From the NCBI RefSeq assembly GCF_048403405.1, contig NZ_CP183129.1: a stretch of DNA of 64,000 nt, one strand, 5' to 3'. Shown here piece by piece: positions 1,845 to 39,241 of this stretch. Positions within the stretch are counted from its first letter, which is position 1, and every line of letters starts with the position of its first letter. A program made the position numbers and the translations under genes. The notes beneath the pieces were generated by a model. The model saw only the letters and a program-made list of their open reading frames with translations. It was not told where the DNA came from and ran no database searches. This stretch comes from Escherichia coli (lineage in GTDB: Bacteria; Pseudomonadota; Gammaproteobacteria; Enterobacterales; Enterobacteriaceae).

Positions 1845-3244
1845 ACACTCGCCAGCTACTGAGCGTCGGTATCGATATCGGCACCACCACCACCCAGGTG
1901 ATTTTCTCCCACCTGGAGCTGGTTAACCGTGCGGCGGTGTCGCAGGTGCCGCGCTACGAATTCATCAAACGCGAAATTAGCTGGCAAAGCCCGGTGTTCT
2001 TTACCCCTGTCGATAAACAGGGTGGTTTAAAAGAAGCGGAACTGAAAACCTTAATCCTGGAGCAATATCAGGCTGCGGGCATTGCGCCGGAAAGTGTTGA
2101 TTCTGGTGCCATCATCATCACCGGTGAAAGCGCGAAAACCCGCAACGCTCGCCCGGCGGTGATGACGCTCTCCCAGTCTCTGGGCGATTTTGTCGTCGCC
2201 AGCGCCGGGCCGCATCTCGAATCCGTGATCGCCGGTCACGGTGCCGGGGCGCAAACCCTTTCTGAACAACGGCTGTGTCGGGTACTGAATATCGATATCG
2301 GCGGTGGCACTGCGAACTACGCCCTGTTCGATGCCGGAAAAATCAGCGGCACCGCCTGCCTCAACGTCGGCGGTCGCCTGCTGGAAACCGACAGCCAGGG
2401 GCGCGTGGTTTACGCTCATAAACCGGGGCAGATGATTGTGGATGAGTGCTTCGGCGCAGGCACCGACGCCCGTTCGCTGACCGGCGCGCAGCTGGTGCAG
2501 GTTACCCGGCGGATGGCAGAGCTGATTGTCGAAGTGATTGACGGAACGCTTTCGCCGCTCGCGCAGGCATTAATGCAAACCGGTTTGCTGCCCGCAGGTG
2601 TTACGCCCGAAATCATTACGCTTTCTGGCGGCGTGGGCGAATGTTATCGCCACCAGCCCGCCGACCCGTTCTGTTTTGCCGATATCGGCCCGCTTCTGGC
2701 AACGGCGCTGCATGACCATCCGCGCCTGCGTGAGATGAACGTGCAGTTTCCGGCGCAAACCGTACGCGCCACGGTGATTGGCGCGGGTGCACATACCCTT
2801 TCGCTCTCTGGCAGCACAATCTGGCTGGAGGGCGTACAACTGCCGCTGCGCAATTTGCCGGTGGCGATCCCAATTGATGAAACGGATCTGGTGAGTGCCT
2901 GGCAACAGGCGCTGATTCAGCTGGATCTTGATCCCAATTCTGACGCGTACGTGCTGGCGCTTCCCGCCTCGCTGCCTGTGCGTTACGCCGCGGTACTGAC
3001 GGTCATCAACGCGCTGGTCGATTTCGTCGCGCGTTTTCCGAATCCGCATCCCCTGCTGGTGGTGGCCGGGCAGGACTTTGGTAAAGCTCTGGGCATGTTG
3101 TTGCGCCCACAGCTACAACAACTCCCGTTGGCAGTCATTGACGAAGTGATTGTCCGCGCGGGGGACTATATCGACATTGGTACGCCTCTTTTTGGCGGAT
3201 CGGTTGTGCCGGTGACGGTGAAATCACTCGCATTTCCTTCCTGA
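1841..3244 (+). CDS. eutA: EutA, ethanolamine ammonia-lyase reactivase
   Basis: 467-aa ORF overlapping the eutH stop by 4 bp. Confidence 0.9.
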   Translation: MNTRQLLSVGIDIGTTTTQVIFSHLELVNRAAVSQVPRYEFIKREISWQSPVFFTPVDKQGGLKEAELKTLILEQYQAAGIAPESVDSGAIIITGESAKTRNARPAVMTLSQSLGDFVVASAGPHLESVIAGHGAGAQTLSEQRLCRVLNIDIGGGTANYALFDAGKISGTACLNVGGRLLETDSQGRVVYAHKPGQMIVDECFGAGTDARSLTGAQLVQVTRRMAELIVEVIDGTLSPLAQALMQTGLLPAGVTPEIITLSGGVGECYRHQPADPFCFADIGPLLATALHDHPRLREMNVQFPAQTVRATVIGAGAHTLSLSGSTIWLEGVQLPLRNLPVAIPIDETDLVSAWQQALIQLDLDPNSDAYVLALPASLPVRYAAVLTVINALVDFVARFPNPHPLLVVAGQDFGKALGMLLRPQLQQLPLAVIDEVIVRAGDYIDIGTPLFGGSVVPVTVKSLAFPS

Positions 3245-34671: not shown

Positions 34672-36087
34672 ATGAAAATCAAAACTCGCTTCGCGCCAAG
34701 CCCAACAGGCTATCTGCACGTTGGCGGCGCGCGTACTGCTCTTTACTCCTGGCTTTTTGCACGTAACCACGGCGGTGAGTTCGTGCTGCGTATTGAAGAC
34801 ACCGATCTTGAGCGTTCCACGCCGGAAGCTATCGAAGCCATTATGGATGGCATGAACTGGCTGAGCCTGGAGTGGGATGAAGGTCCGTACTTCCAGACCA
34901 AACGTTTTGATCGCTACAACGCGGTGATCGATCAGATGCTGGAAGAGGGCACAGCTTATAAATGCTATTGCTCTAAAGAGCGCCTGGAAGCGCTGCGCGA
35001 AGAGCAAATGGCGAAAGGTGAGAAGCCGCGTTATGACGGTCGCTGCCGCCACAGCCATGAGCATCATGCTGATGATGAACCGTGTGTTGTACGTTTTGCT
35101 AACCCGCAGGAAGGTTCTGTTGTTTTTGACGATCAGATCCGTGGTCCGATCGAATTCAGCAACCAGGAGCTGGATGATCTGATTATCCGTCGTACCGATG
35201 GTTCTCCAACCTATAACTTCTGTGTGGTGGTTGACGACTGGGATATGGAAATCACCCACGTTATCCGTGGCGAAGACCATATCAACAACACGCCACGCCA
35301 GATCAACATTCTTAAAGCACTGAAAGCGCCGGTACCGGTTTACGCGCACGTTTCTATGATCAACGGCGATGACGGCAAAAAACTGTCCAAACGTCACGGG
35401 GCGGTCAGCGTAATGCAGTATCGTGATGACGGTTATTTGCCAGAAGCACTGCTGAACTATCTGGTGCGTCTGGGCTGGTCCCACGGCGATCAGGAAATCT
35501 TCACTCGTGAAGAGATGATCAAATACTTCACCCTGAATGCCGTCAGCAAATCTGCCAGTGCGTTCAACACCGACAAGCTGCTGTGGCTGAACCATCACTA
35601 CATTAACGCGCTGCCGCCGGAGTATGTTGCTACTCAATTACAGTGGCACATTGAGCAGGAAAATATCGATACCCGTAACGGCCCGCAGCTGGCTGATCTG
35701 GTGAAACTACTGGGTGAACGCTGCAAGACGCTGAAAGAGATGGCACAGAGCTGCCGCTATTTCTACGAAGATTTTGCTGAGTTCGATGCCGACGCCGCGA
35801 AAAAACATCTGCGTCCGGTAGCGCGTCAGCCGCTGGAAGTGGTTCGTGACAAACTGGCCGCGATTACTGACTGGACCGCTGAAAACGTTCATCACGCTAT
35901 TCAGGCGACGGCGGATGAGCTGGAAGTGGGGATGGGTAAAGTTGGTATGCCGCTGCGTGTCGCCGTAACCGGTGCGGGGCAGTCTCCGGCGCTGGATGTT
36001 ACCGTTCACGCAATCGGTAAGACCCGCAGTATCGAGCGTATCAACAAAGCGCTGGCTTTTATTGCTGAACGCGAAAATCAGCAGTAA
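34672..36087 (+). CDS. gltX: GltX, glutamyl-tRNA synthetase
   Basis: 471-aa ORF with HIGH-type motif (PTGYLHVGG) and KMSK-type motif (KLSKR). Confidence 0.95.
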
Positions 36088-36103
36088 TTAGCGCATAAAA
36101 GAT

Positions 36104-36136
36104 AAACGGCAGGAGAGATACCCCTGCCGTTTTTTA
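36104..36136 (+). terminator. Rho-independent terminator after gltX
   Basis: aacggcagg agagatac ccctgccgtt followed by tttttt. Confidence 0.7.
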
Positions 36137-36210
36137 TTTATCCGGTGCGCCGTAAAACCCCGTCCTTCAGGGCGGGGATATAAGGCGCGGTTTTCCACCT
36201 GACCAGGTGT

Positions 36211-36630
36211 TTGCTGTTGTTCAATGTATTGGCGGATGACGGATATTGGCGCACCTCCGCAGCTACTGGCAAAATAGCCAGGACTCCACAAAACGCCTTT
36301 GTAGTAATACCTGACGGCAATATCTGGTCGATCTCGTCGCAGTCACCTACCCGATACGCCTTTGAGGCTGTTTACCAGACTGGATATCGCCAGTTTGGGA
36401 GGATAGTTAATTAACAAATGGACGTGATCTGGTTCGCCATCCATTTCAACCAGTTCAGCTTCAAAATCAGCACATACCTTTGAAAAGTAAGTGCGTAGTT
36501 TTTCTGTCGCGTCATGGTCAAAAATCTGGCGTCGGTATCTGGTGACAAAGACCAGGTGAACATGCATCAGGAAAACACAATGCCTTCCACGCCGGATATC
36601 GGTTTCTTTTTTCACAGACCAAAGTATCAT
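36211..36630 (-). pseudogene. tnpA: tnpA (IS200/IS605 Y1 HuH transposase) interrupted by an in-frame TGA at 36343-36345
   Basis: N-terminal ORF 36343..36630 carries HuH (PDHVHLLI); the same frame continues after the stop through RLRRDRPDIAVRYYYKGVLWSPGYFASSCGGAPISVIRQYIEQQ (ORF 36088..36291). Confidence 0.7.
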
Positions 36631-36637
36631 TTGGCCT

Positions 36638-37846
36638 GTGAAACGACTACAGGCATTTAAATTCCAGTTAAGACCCGGTGGTCAACAGGAGCGTGAAATG
36701 AGGCGCTTCGCAGGCGCATGTCGTTTCGTTTTCAATCGTGCTCTGGCGCTTCAGAATGAGAATCATGAGGCCGGTAATAAATACATCCCTTACGGGAAAA
36801 TGGCTTCCTGGCTGGTTGAGTGGAAAAACGCCACTGAAACGCAATGGCTTAAAGATTCGCCCTCACAGCCATTGCAACAGTCACTGAAAGACCTTGAGCG
36901 GGCTTACAAAAACTTCTTCCGGAAGCGGGCTGCTTTTCCCCGATTCAAAAAGCGGGGACAGAATGATGCATTCCGCTACCCGCAGGGCGTTAAGCTCGAT
37001 CAGGAAAACAGCCGTATTTTTCTGCCGAAACTTGGCTGGATGCGCTACCGGAATAGCCGTCAGGTCACGGGTGTTGTGAAAAATGTCACTGTCTGCCAGT
37101 CCTGCGGTAAGTGGTACATCAGTATTCAGACAGAAAGTGAAGTATCAACTCCGGTTCACCCTTCAGCATCAATGGTCGGGCTGGATGCTGGCGTGGCTAA
37201 ACTCGCCACGCTGTCAGATGGCACAGTCTTTGAGCCTGTAAACAGTTTTCAGAAAAACCAGAAGAAGCTGGCGAGACTTCAGCGACAGTTAAGCCGCAAG
37301 GTCAAATTCAGCAACAACTGGCAGAAGCAGAAACGCAAAATACAGCGACTGCATTCCTGTATCGCAAATATCCGCAGGGACTACCTTCATAAAGTCACAA
37401 CGACCGTCAGCAAAAACCACGCAATGATAGTCATTGAGGATTTGAAGGTCAGTAACATGTCAAAGTCAGCAGCGGGTACGGTCAGCCAGCCGCGGCGCAA
37501 TGTCCGGGCAAAATCAGGTTTAAACCGTTCGATACTGGATCAGGGCAGGTATGAAATGCGCCGCCAGCTTGAGTACAAGCAGCTCTGGCGTGGCGGTCAG
37601 GTGCTTGCTGTTCCGCCAGCGTACACAAGCCAGCGTTGCGCGTGCTGTGGTCATACAGCGAAAGAAAATCGCCTGTCACAAAGTCAATTCAGATGCCAGG
37701 TATGTGGATATACAGCGAACGCCGATGTAAACGGCGCTCGTAACATTTTAGCGGCGGGGCACGCCGTTCTTGCCTGTGGAGAGATGGTGCAGTCAGGCCG
37801 CCCGTTGAAGCAGGAACCCACCGAAATGATTCAGGCGACAGCCTGA
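36638..37846 (+). CDS. tnpB: TnpB (IS605 OrfB-type RuvC-like nuclease), 402 aa, GTG start
   Basis: N-terminal KFQLRP...FNRAL; RuvC-I GLDAGV, RuvC-II VIEDLK, CxxC...CxxC zinc finger (CACCGH...CQVCGY), Ruv[13 protein letters not shown]. Confidence 0.85.
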
Positions 37847-37901
37847 ACGTAGCAGGGATCCTCGTCATTCAGGGCGTGGAGGATGTCAAGCTGATTCATC
37901 T
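37700..37901 (+). ncRNA. Predicted TnpB-associated right-end guide RNA (omega RNA) region; extent not determined
   Basis: Inferred from the known organisation of IS200/IS605 elements (RNA overlaps the tnpB 3' end and right end, guide read from flank); no sequence-level proof here. Confidence 0.3.
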
Positions 37902-38170
37902 ATGTCGAGACGAGCAAGGAAATTACGAATTCCTTCGCGTGACAAAAATTGCGCAACTTTTTCCTGCTCACTGTGAGTCATGTTGTCTATTGCGCTGATG
38001 ATTTGCCGATAAGCAGGAGTGCGAATCCCCGGTGCGTATTCGGCAAGGGGTTCTTCGGCTTCCAGAAGCATCGGCGTGTTATGGAAGGCTGGCGTGTTCT
38101 GAATAAACTCGCAAACTTGCGTATCGACCAGAATAAGTCTGGCACGACCGCCTTTCACGCCAGGAAATTT
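37886..38170 (-). pseudogene. yfeD: yfeD 3' segment (codons 37-130) of an HTH-type DNA-binding protein split by the IS110-family insertion
   Basis: ORF 37886..38158 plus in-frame upstream codons KFPG; paralogous to yfeC. Confidence 0.8.
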
Positions 38171-38236
38171 AATGAGATGGTCACTCCCTCCTTCCCGGTA
38201 CTATGCTGAGGACAGGCTTTCATTCGGAGAACTATC

Positions 38237-39241
38237 ATGGAAAACATTGCGCTCATTGGTATCGATCTGGGTAAAAACTCTTTCCATATTCATTGCCAGG
38301 ATCGTCGCGGGAAGGCTGTTTACCGTAAAAAATTTACCCGGCCAAAGTTGATCGAATTTTTGGCGACATGCCCCGCTACAACCATCGCAATGGAAGCCTG
38401 TGGCGGTTCTCACTTTATGGCACGCAAGTTGGAAGAGTTGGGGCATTCCCCAAAGCTGATATCACCACAATTTGTCCGCCCGTTCGTTAAAAGCAATAAA
38501 AACGACTTTGTCGACGCCGAAGCTATTTGTGAAGCTGCATCGCGTCCGTCTATGCGTTTTGTGCAGCCCAGAACGGAATCTCAGCAGGCAATGCGGGCTC
38601 TGCATCGTGTCCGTGAATCCCTGGTTCAGGATAAGGTAAAAACAACCAATCAAATGCATGCTTTTCTGCTGGAATTTGGCATTAGCGTTCCCCGAGGAGC
38701 TGCCGTTATTAGCCGACTGAGTACCATTCTTGAGGATAATAGTTTGCCTCTTTACCTCAGCCAGTTATTGCTGAAATTACAACAGCATTATCACTATCTT
38801 GTTGAGCAGATTAAAGATTTGGAATCCCAGTTGAAACGAAAGTTGGACGAAGATGAGGTTGGACAGCGCTTGCTGAGCATTCCCTGCGTCGGAACACTGA
38901 CAGCGAGTACTATTTCAACTGAGATTGGCGACGGGAAGCAGTACGCCAGCAGCCGTGACTTTGCGGCGGCAACAGGGCTTGTACCTCGGCAGTACAGCAC
39001 GGGAGGTAGGACGACATTGCTGGGAATTAGTAAGCGAGGTAATAAAAAGATCCGAACTTTGTTGGTTCAATGTGCCAGGGTATTCATACAAAAACTGGAA
39101 CACCAGTCTGGCAAATTGGCCGATTGGGTCAGGGATTTACTGTGCCGGAAAAGCAACTTTGTCGTCACTTGTGCTCTGGCAAACAAGCTGGCCAGAATAG
39201 CCTGGGCCCTAACGGCACGACAGCAAACTTATGTAGCATAA
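38237..39241 (+). CDS. IS110-family DEDD transposase/recombinase, 334 aa
   Basis: N-terminal RuvC-like motifs (IGIDLGK, MEACG, DFVDAEA) and C-terminal domain with conserved Ser (VPRQYSTGG). Confidence 0.85.
   Translation: MENIALIGIDLGKNSFHIHCQDRRGKAVYRKKFTRPKLIEFLATCPATTIAMEACGGSHFMARKLEELGHSPKLISPQFVRPFVKSNKNDFVDAEAICEAASRPSMRFVQPRTESQQAMRALHRVRESLVQDKVKTTNQMHAFLLEFGISVPRGAAVISRLSTILEDNSLPLYLSQLLLKLQQHYHYLVEQIKDLESQLKRKLDEDEVGQRLLSIPCVGTLTASTISTEIGDGKQYASSRDFAAATGLVPRQYSTGGRTTLLGISKRGNKKIRTLLVQCARVFIQKLEHQSGKLADWVRDLLCRKSNFVVTCALANKLARIAWALTARQQTYVA

Follow-up and report, generated by a model that had tools for sequence, protein, structure and literature searches.

The centre of insertion sequence IS609 as a probable compact bidirectional promoter for tnpA and tnpB

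Cas12 descends from TnpB nucleases, which now serve as genome editors; little has been described of how native elements express tnpA, tnpB and the precursor of the guide RNA. IS605 and IS606 of Helicobacter pylori carry tnpA and tnpB in divergent order, and IS200 keeps the expression of its tnpA very low by means of a hairpin at the ribosome-binding site together with an antisense RNA. Here we analyse the centre of IS609, an element of the same family with the same divergent order, as it is found in a 64,000-nt stretch of Escherichia coli DNA (contig NZ_CP183129.1, assembly GCF_048403405.1) that we term the window. Two described classes of transcription unit resemble it. Bidirectional promoters (Warman et al. 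2021, as summarised in PMC12825309 and PMC10268837) have divergent transcription start sites (TSSs) 7–25 bp apart, the common distances being 18, 10 and 23 bp; they arise from a near-symmetric −10 element, where one polymerase binding event prevents the other. Leaderless mRNAs are associated with mobile elements in E. coli (PMC4681348).

The annotated start codons of the two genes, the ATG of tnpA on the minus strand (CAT on the plus strand) and the GTG of tnpB on the plus strand (36638–36640), are separated by the 7-bp spacer TTGGCCT. This was first noted from the sequence and is confirmed by the letters and the list of open reading frames (ORFs). The same two starts, 7 bp apart, are annotated by the Prokaryotic Genome Annotation Pipeline (PGAP) in the identical or near-identical IS609 copies of TUM14771, O55:H7, K-12 and EDL933. 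The sequence-only reading held that such a spacer leaves no room for promoters, so that each promoter must lie inside the other gene, with overlapping divergent transcription and possible antisense interference. We reach a different conclusion. With a probability that we put at about 0.78, the centre of IS609 is one compact, bidirectional promoter of the sigma-70 type, firing outward to give main transcripts that do not overlap, and the annotated tnpA ATG, together with the 7-bp gap, is a side effect of a change in the −10 hexamer.

The core of this promoter consists of two −10-like hexamers on opposite strands that share 4 bp (Table 1). Each of the window hexamers lies 7 nt from its start codon, and the corresponding TATAAT and TATACT hexamers of related elements lie 6–8 nt from theirs. 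TTGGCCT is the stretch between the −10 hexamer and the TSS of the tnpB promoter, not a usual intergenic spacer. The argument that there is no room for promoters therefore stands in part: conventional promoters with leaders would not fit, and the upstream (−35) half of each promoter overlies the opening codons of the opposite gene. What does fit is a small shared promoter, in a gap of 22 bp.

Table 1. Positions of the features of IS609 and its surroundings in the window
Feature	Position	Strand	Remarks
gltX/yfeD terminator hairpin	36104–36132		Terminator-like hairpin from scan
TTAT target tetranucleotide	36138–36141	+	Immediately 5′ of left end; within T-tract of gltX/yfeD bidirectional terminator
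IS609	36142–37889	+	1748 bp; left end, tnpA (reverse), tnpB (forward), right end; exact junctions from comparison with empty site
Left-end subterminal hairpin	36147–36188	+	DNA fold −14.7 kcal/mol, z = −2.5
tnpA as annotated by PGAP	36199–36630	−	Y1 HUH transposase; pseudogene in window
Secondary K-12 TSS inside tnpA	36282 (equivalent)	+	Antisense to tnpA, 356 nt upstream of tnpB; PMC3415461 Table S1, TSS 1501325, 28 reads
Near-perfect 34-bp inverted repeat	36610–36643	both	TTTCACAGACCAAA-gtatca-TTTGGCCTGTGAAA; centred on promoter; E. coli lineage only
Family-conserved tnpA start position (E. coli codon 6)	36613–36615	−	GTG in E. coli
Bidirectional promoter core (probable)	36623–36630	both	TATCAT on + strand (36625–36630), GATACT on − strand (36628–36623)
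Annotated tnpA ATG	36628–36630	−	Upstream of EDL933 tnpA TSS
TTGGCCT	36631–36637	+	Region between tnpB −10 and TSS; no Shine–Dalgarno sequence
tnpB (InsQ; RNA-guided endonuclease family)	36638–37846	+	402 aa, GTG start
Right-end last bases TCAA	37886–37889	+	Junction from comparison with empty site

Published transcription start sites locate both transcripts at this core. For tnpB, Kim et al. 2012 (PMC3415461, Tables S1 and S4) report a plus-strand TSS in E. coli MG1655 at 1501681, at the start of ydcM (b1432, now insQ) with a 5′ untranslated region of 0, and their Table S4 places ydcM among 18 leaderless E. coli mRNAs. The same position (FWD-1501681) was obtained independently by Romero et al. 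2014 (PMC4681348) using differential RNA sequencing (dRNA-seq). It is the first base of the tnpB GTG, equivalent to 36638 in the window, and with two studies in agreement the tnpB mRNA is leaderless in K-12. The annotated start of tnpB is sound, being supported by these two maps, by the relatives, which have ATG where E. coli has GTG, and by the Pfam match to HTH_OrfB_IS605 (E = 3.9e-14), which begins at residue 1 of the TnpB product; the other Pfam matches to this protein are OrfB_IS605 (RuvC-like; 1.3e-34) and the zinc ribbon Cas12f1-like_TNB (4.8e-23). A tnpB start further downstream, which would have restored a conventional intergenic promoter, is therefore not what is found; it is the start of tnpA that probably lies downstream.

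For tnpA, Cappable-seq of strain EDL933 (PMC10469882) gives a minus-strand TSS at 5331051 in all nine of nine conditions, assigned to 'IS200/IS605 family transposase IS609' (EDL933_RS29315). The central sequence of this copy is identical to that of the window, with tnpA annotated at 5330637–5331068 and tnpB from 5331076. The TSS lies 17 nt into the annotated ORF, at the third base of the GTG that forms codon 6 (window equivalent 36613), and because of this the annotated ATG falls outside the main tnpA transcript. The entry appears to belong to a set of TSSs located downstream of the assumed start codon, for which the authors suggest mis-annotated starts. The plus-strand site at 36638 and the minus-strand site at 36613 (from K-12 and EDL933 respectively) lie on opposite strands, 25 bp apart, and both fire outward. 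The main transcripts have no sequence in common, contrary to the overlapping divergent transcription that had been expected of the core promoters.

The same arrangement is general among related elements. A scan with the intact TnpA, using one genome per species, yielded 43 loci, 30 of which contain both gene starts. These 30 loci on genome contigs are from Escherichia sp., Klebsiella indica, Serratia, Pantoea, Erwinia, Buttiauxella, Morganella, Yersinia ruckeri, Edwardsiella, Proteus, Photorhabdus, Regiella, Caballeronia, Aromatoleum and a Victivallaceae metagenome-assembled genome (MAG); two annotated plasmid relatives, from Arsenophonus and Komagataeibacter, bring the set to 32 relatives from ~15 genera. 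Read in the orientation of the window, all have a single layout, CAT-AGACCAAAG-TATAAT-N7-ATG. Of the 30 relatives on genome contigs, 29 have the tnpA ATG at the equivalent of E. coli codon 6, as do both of those on plasmids; the exception is Escherichia sp. L004, with GTG at this position. A perfect TATAAT is present in 24 of the 30, located 7 nt before the tnpB start (6 nt in one), while on the opposite strand TATACT-like hexamers lie 7–8 nt before the conserved tnpA ATG. The information content across the relatives is ~1.6 bits for the −10 hexamer and 2 bits for the tnpB ATG, falling to 0.04–0.6 bits per column in N7, and no conserved Shine–Dalgarno sequence was found among the relatives in the N7 before tnpB. 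The start-to-start gap is 21–23 bp, and is annotated by PGAP as 22 bp in both Arsenophonus and Komagataeibacter. The 7-bp spacing is therefore not shared by the related elements, and the conserved start spacing of the IS609 clade is 21–23 bp. In a more distant, Photorhabdus-type divergent clade (~50% TnpA identity) the intergenic region is ~68 bp, and hence the tight back-to-back arrangement belongs to the IS609 clade rather than to divergent IS605-group elements in general.

The relatives also bear on the start of tnpA itself. Most of them have ATT at the codon that corresponds to the annotated E. coli ATG, and many have an in-frame stop codon 2–7 codons upstream of the conserved ATG, so that a longer TnpA is impossible in those elements. 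The E. coli 'ATG' is best read as a by-product of an A-to-C change in the shared −10 hexamer, TATAAT to TATCAT, that is found in many E. coli copies. IS609 of E. coli SMS-3-5 keeps TATAAT, and therefore has ATT at the codon in question. The annotated ATG is probably not the functional start, and the RefSeq start of E. coli IS609 tnpA is probably five codons too long. The two start codons are thus 7 bp apart as sequence and as annotation but probably not as real starts, given the relatives and the EDL933 TSS. Since the tnpA start is probably wrong, the 7-bp gap is a probable annotation artefact, and it is unfit for inferring overlapping transcription.

Three of the loci recovered in the scan deserve comment. 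Two enterobacterial-type, IS609-like elements are on very short contigs, L016 (Streptomyces mutabilis JCM 4400, a contig of 2057 bp) and L045 (a Chlamydia trachomatis MAG); the centre of L016 is nearly identical to that of L026 from Proteus mirabilis, and both elements are likely to be assembly contamination. In L008, on a Pantoea agglomerans plasmid, a TAA around 3001–3010 is the third codon after the conserved tnpA ATG, so that this tnpA is probably a pseudogene as well.

We propose that RNA polymerase would bind the core in either orientation and fire outward, generating two transcripts that run back to back without overlap. The tnpB mRNA would begin with the start codon itself and be leaderless, as it is in K-12, and that of tnpA would start at the family-conserved start codon, 15–17 nt downstream of the annotated ATG, as in EDL933. 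In the relatives both mRNAs would begin exactly at AUG and be translated as leaderless messages; for tnpA, an exactly leaderless mRNA in relatives with ATG is predicted from the −10 spacing. One polymerase would exclude the other, and the expression of tnpA and tnpB may therefore compete. Because the −10 hexamers overlap and the main transcripts share no sequence, competition between polymerases is more likely than antisense interference at the IS609 centre. In other TnpB elements the tnpB message is reportedly the precursor of the guide RNA, and that of IS609 may likewise double as such a precursor.

The E. coli version of the promoter would be attenuated, because GTG takes the place of ATG at both starts and the shared −10 hexamer is weakened. 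In E. coli, GUG supports the translation of leaderless messages poorly (PMC9031893), and transposition of IS609 was never seen in mutation-accumulation lines (PMC5009759); an attenuated version would fit the inactivity of IS609 in E. coli. A broader proposal can be made only tentatively, and we think it rather less probable than its converse. The IS609 clade would have one symmetric promoter of ~25 bp that drives two leaderless mRNAs, with the orientation of the polymerase setting the ratio of transposase to TnpB and guide-RNA precursor; Escherichia would then have turned down both arms, by one −10 mutation and by a change of each start codon from ATG to GTG, so that ~90% of E. coli genomes would retain an almost silent tnpB.

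Several observations weigh against a shared bidirectional promoter. In K-12 the number of reads is small (14). The two TSSs were mapped in different strains and in different copies of IS609, with no single dataset containing both, and neither K-12 dataset (PMC3415461, PMC4681348) reports a minus-strand TSS at the IS609 centre. The EDL933 tnpA transcript lacks the first two bases of the codon-6 GTG, its TSS being on the third base and not the first, so that in this strain the tnpA mRNA is not leaderless in the strict sense. Neither promoter has a recognisable −35 hexamer, and a consensus promoter scan of 36000–38000 gave no promoter in the centre, because the −35 hexamers are poor. Lastly, the sequence AGACCAA on the tnpA side (36616–36622) is almost invariant in the 32 relatives, while the mirror-image 7 nt on the tnpB side are hypervariable; this invariance is not accounted for by a simple stretch from −10 box to TSS. 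Of the further sources consulted, the K-12 Cappable-seq supplement (PMC4782308) has no rows covering the ydcM/IS609 region, IS609 entries were not found in the TSS supplements for Shigella M90T, and insQ/ydcM is unmentioned in the main texts examined on leaderless mRNA.

The model that follows from the annotation, with true starts 7 bp apart, promoters well inside the opposite genes and mRNA 5′ ends that overlap and interfere by antisense, draws on the PGAP starts and on two internal TSSs in one K-12 dataset (PMC3415461). One is on the plus strand inside tnpA, at the equivalent of 36282; the other is a weak minus-strand TSS at 1502155 inside tnpB (2 reads; window equivalent ~37112), which adjoins the motif TTGATA-16-AATACT. 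Transcripts from these two sites are possibly antisense, and this is the residual support for antisense interference, which is not supported for the core promoters. Neither site was reproduced in the second K-12 dataset (PMC4681348), the −35 belonging to the ~37112 site is confined to E. coli, and among the relatives conservation of the motifs at the two internal promoters is not separable from coding constraint. Set against the consistent outward-firing TSSs at the start codons, and against the absence of the annotated tnpA ATG from the relatives and from some E. coli copies, this model is improbable.

The E. coli sequence offers a further candidate for regulation in the 34-bp inverted repeat that surrounds the core. 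It could be the operator of a dimeric regulator, or could form an RNA hairpin hiding both start codons in the manner of IS200 tnpA. Its arms of 14 bp contain one mismatch, and as minus-strand RNA it folds strongly (z = −3.96), with none of 200 shuffled sequences folding as well; in any long read-through transcript the hairpin would span both start codons. The right arm, though, falls within the hypervariable 7 nt and lacks conservation beyond Escherichia, a second arm mismatch is already present in K-12, and both mapped TSSs are within the arms, so that the main transcripts are unable to form the hairpin. Part of the symmetry also follows from having two mirrored units of −10 hexamer and start codon. 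A functional repeat of either kind is for these reasons very unlikely, and as the main regulatory hairpin it was rejected, on account of its lack of conservation and the position of both TSSs inside the arms. At most it could silence the start codons in read-through transcripts.

The tnpA gene of the window is a pseudogene. Aligned with the intact O55:H7 copy, codon 96 is changed from TTA to TGA at 36343–36345 and the natural stop at 36199–36201 is changed to CAG; the Pfam Y1_Tnp domain is matched by both the N-terminal (E = 4.5e-26) and C-terminal (3.3e-6) fragments. PGAP notes an 'internal stop' for tnpA in the identical TUM14771 copy, and tnpA is a pseudogene in K-12 too. It might then be supposed that the element is a decaying relic, and the central arrangement the result of drift in a dead element; the GTG codons at both E. 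coli starts, the weakened −10 hexamer and the lack of transposition in the mutation-accumulation lines could all be read in that way. Yet tnpB is whole, encoding 402 aa in the window and in each E. coli copy inspected, and near-full-length IS609 is present in about 4858 of 5426 complete E. coli genomes (~500 of them with a copy at the gltX site). Moreover, activity is detected at both TSSs, and strong conservation of the architecture extends across classes of Proteobacteria. Drift in a dead element consequently has very little probability as an account of the centre, although the relic view is compatible with the bidirectional promoter as an ancestral design.

The element is IS609 of the IS200/IS605 family, as identified by its Pfam domains, its ends and its near-identity to annotated IS609. 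It lies in an E. coli chromosomal context, following gltX (34672–36087, plus strand) and followed by yfeD and yfeC. The boundaries were set by comparison with the empty gltX–yfeD site of strain HB37, where the sequence reads ...ccgttttttatttat followed directly by gctgattc...; relative to this the filled site has exactly 1748 bp added after TTAT, with no target duplication and, as is typical of the family, no terminal inverted repeats. Copies of IS609 elsewhere in the genomes align from ~36137 to 37889, the TTAT bases being common to the other loci. The mobile_genetic_element IS609 annotated in MG1655 is likewise 1748 bp, at another locus, with yncK (a tnpA pseudogene) and insQ (tnpB). Across E. 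coli, annotated copies are 98–100% identical to that of the window over the 1748 bp, with the same ends and the same divergent layout, and the window copy differs from them only in its site of insertion (the gltX/yfeD terminator) and in the point mutations of tnpA. gltX retains its terminator despite the presence of IS609, while yfeD is now 1.7 kb away from it. yfeD is itself interrupted by an element of the IS110 family at 38171–39300 (transposase ORF 38237–39241, plus strand, with domains DEDD_Tnp_IS110 and Transposase_20). PGAP labels it 'IS4321 family' in a relative, and identity to strains with intact yfeD ends at 38170.

At the left end of IS609 there is a subterminal hairpin (Table 1), while at the right end the minimum-energy DNA fold (z = +0.48) gives no significant hairpin. 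By analogy with established TnpB/omega-RNA biology, the flank from 37890 (GCTGATTCATCTATGT...) would provide the guide portion of the TnpB guide RNA. An Rfam match to RAGATH-18 at 37773–37816 on the plus strand scores 25.4 bits (E = 0.077), below the gathering score of 44.9; it falls at the 3′ end of tnpB, the expected place for the scaffold of a TnpB guide RNA.

Much of the above is already public, namely IS609, its divergent gene order, the leaderless ydcM TSS, the downstream tnpA TSS and the class of bidirectional promoters. In a literature search, no description was found of the promoter of IS609, or of those of TnpB-bearing elements, as a bidirectional and leaderless combination. Putting these known parts together for IS609 serves mainly to correct the start of tnpA, and gives a neat illustration of how an element of this sort expresses its two genes. 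Like the described bidirectional promoters, IS609 has closely spaced divergent TSSs (25 bp apart, with 23 bp predicted in the relatives) and hexamers that share a 4-bp core (TATA/TATC). Unlike the commonest class, where the TSSs are 18 bp apart and positions −7 and −11 are reciprocally coincident, the offset in IS609 is larger. Both products of IS609 are protein-coding mRNAs that start at or next to their start codons, a situation that is undescribed in PMC12825309 and PMC10268837. The centre of IS609 is without the conserved leader hairpin of the IS200 type. In having the TSS at the start codon and no Shine–Dalgarno sequence it resembles the leaderless mRNAs of mobile elements, such as lambda cI, Tn1721 tetR, dicA, racR and ymfK; unlike these, both IS609 genes start with GTG in E. 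coli, a codon at which leaderless initiation is inefficient there, while the relatives use ATG. If the reading is correct, the IS609 clade would be a simple and conserved example of a shared two-way promoter with leaderless messages.

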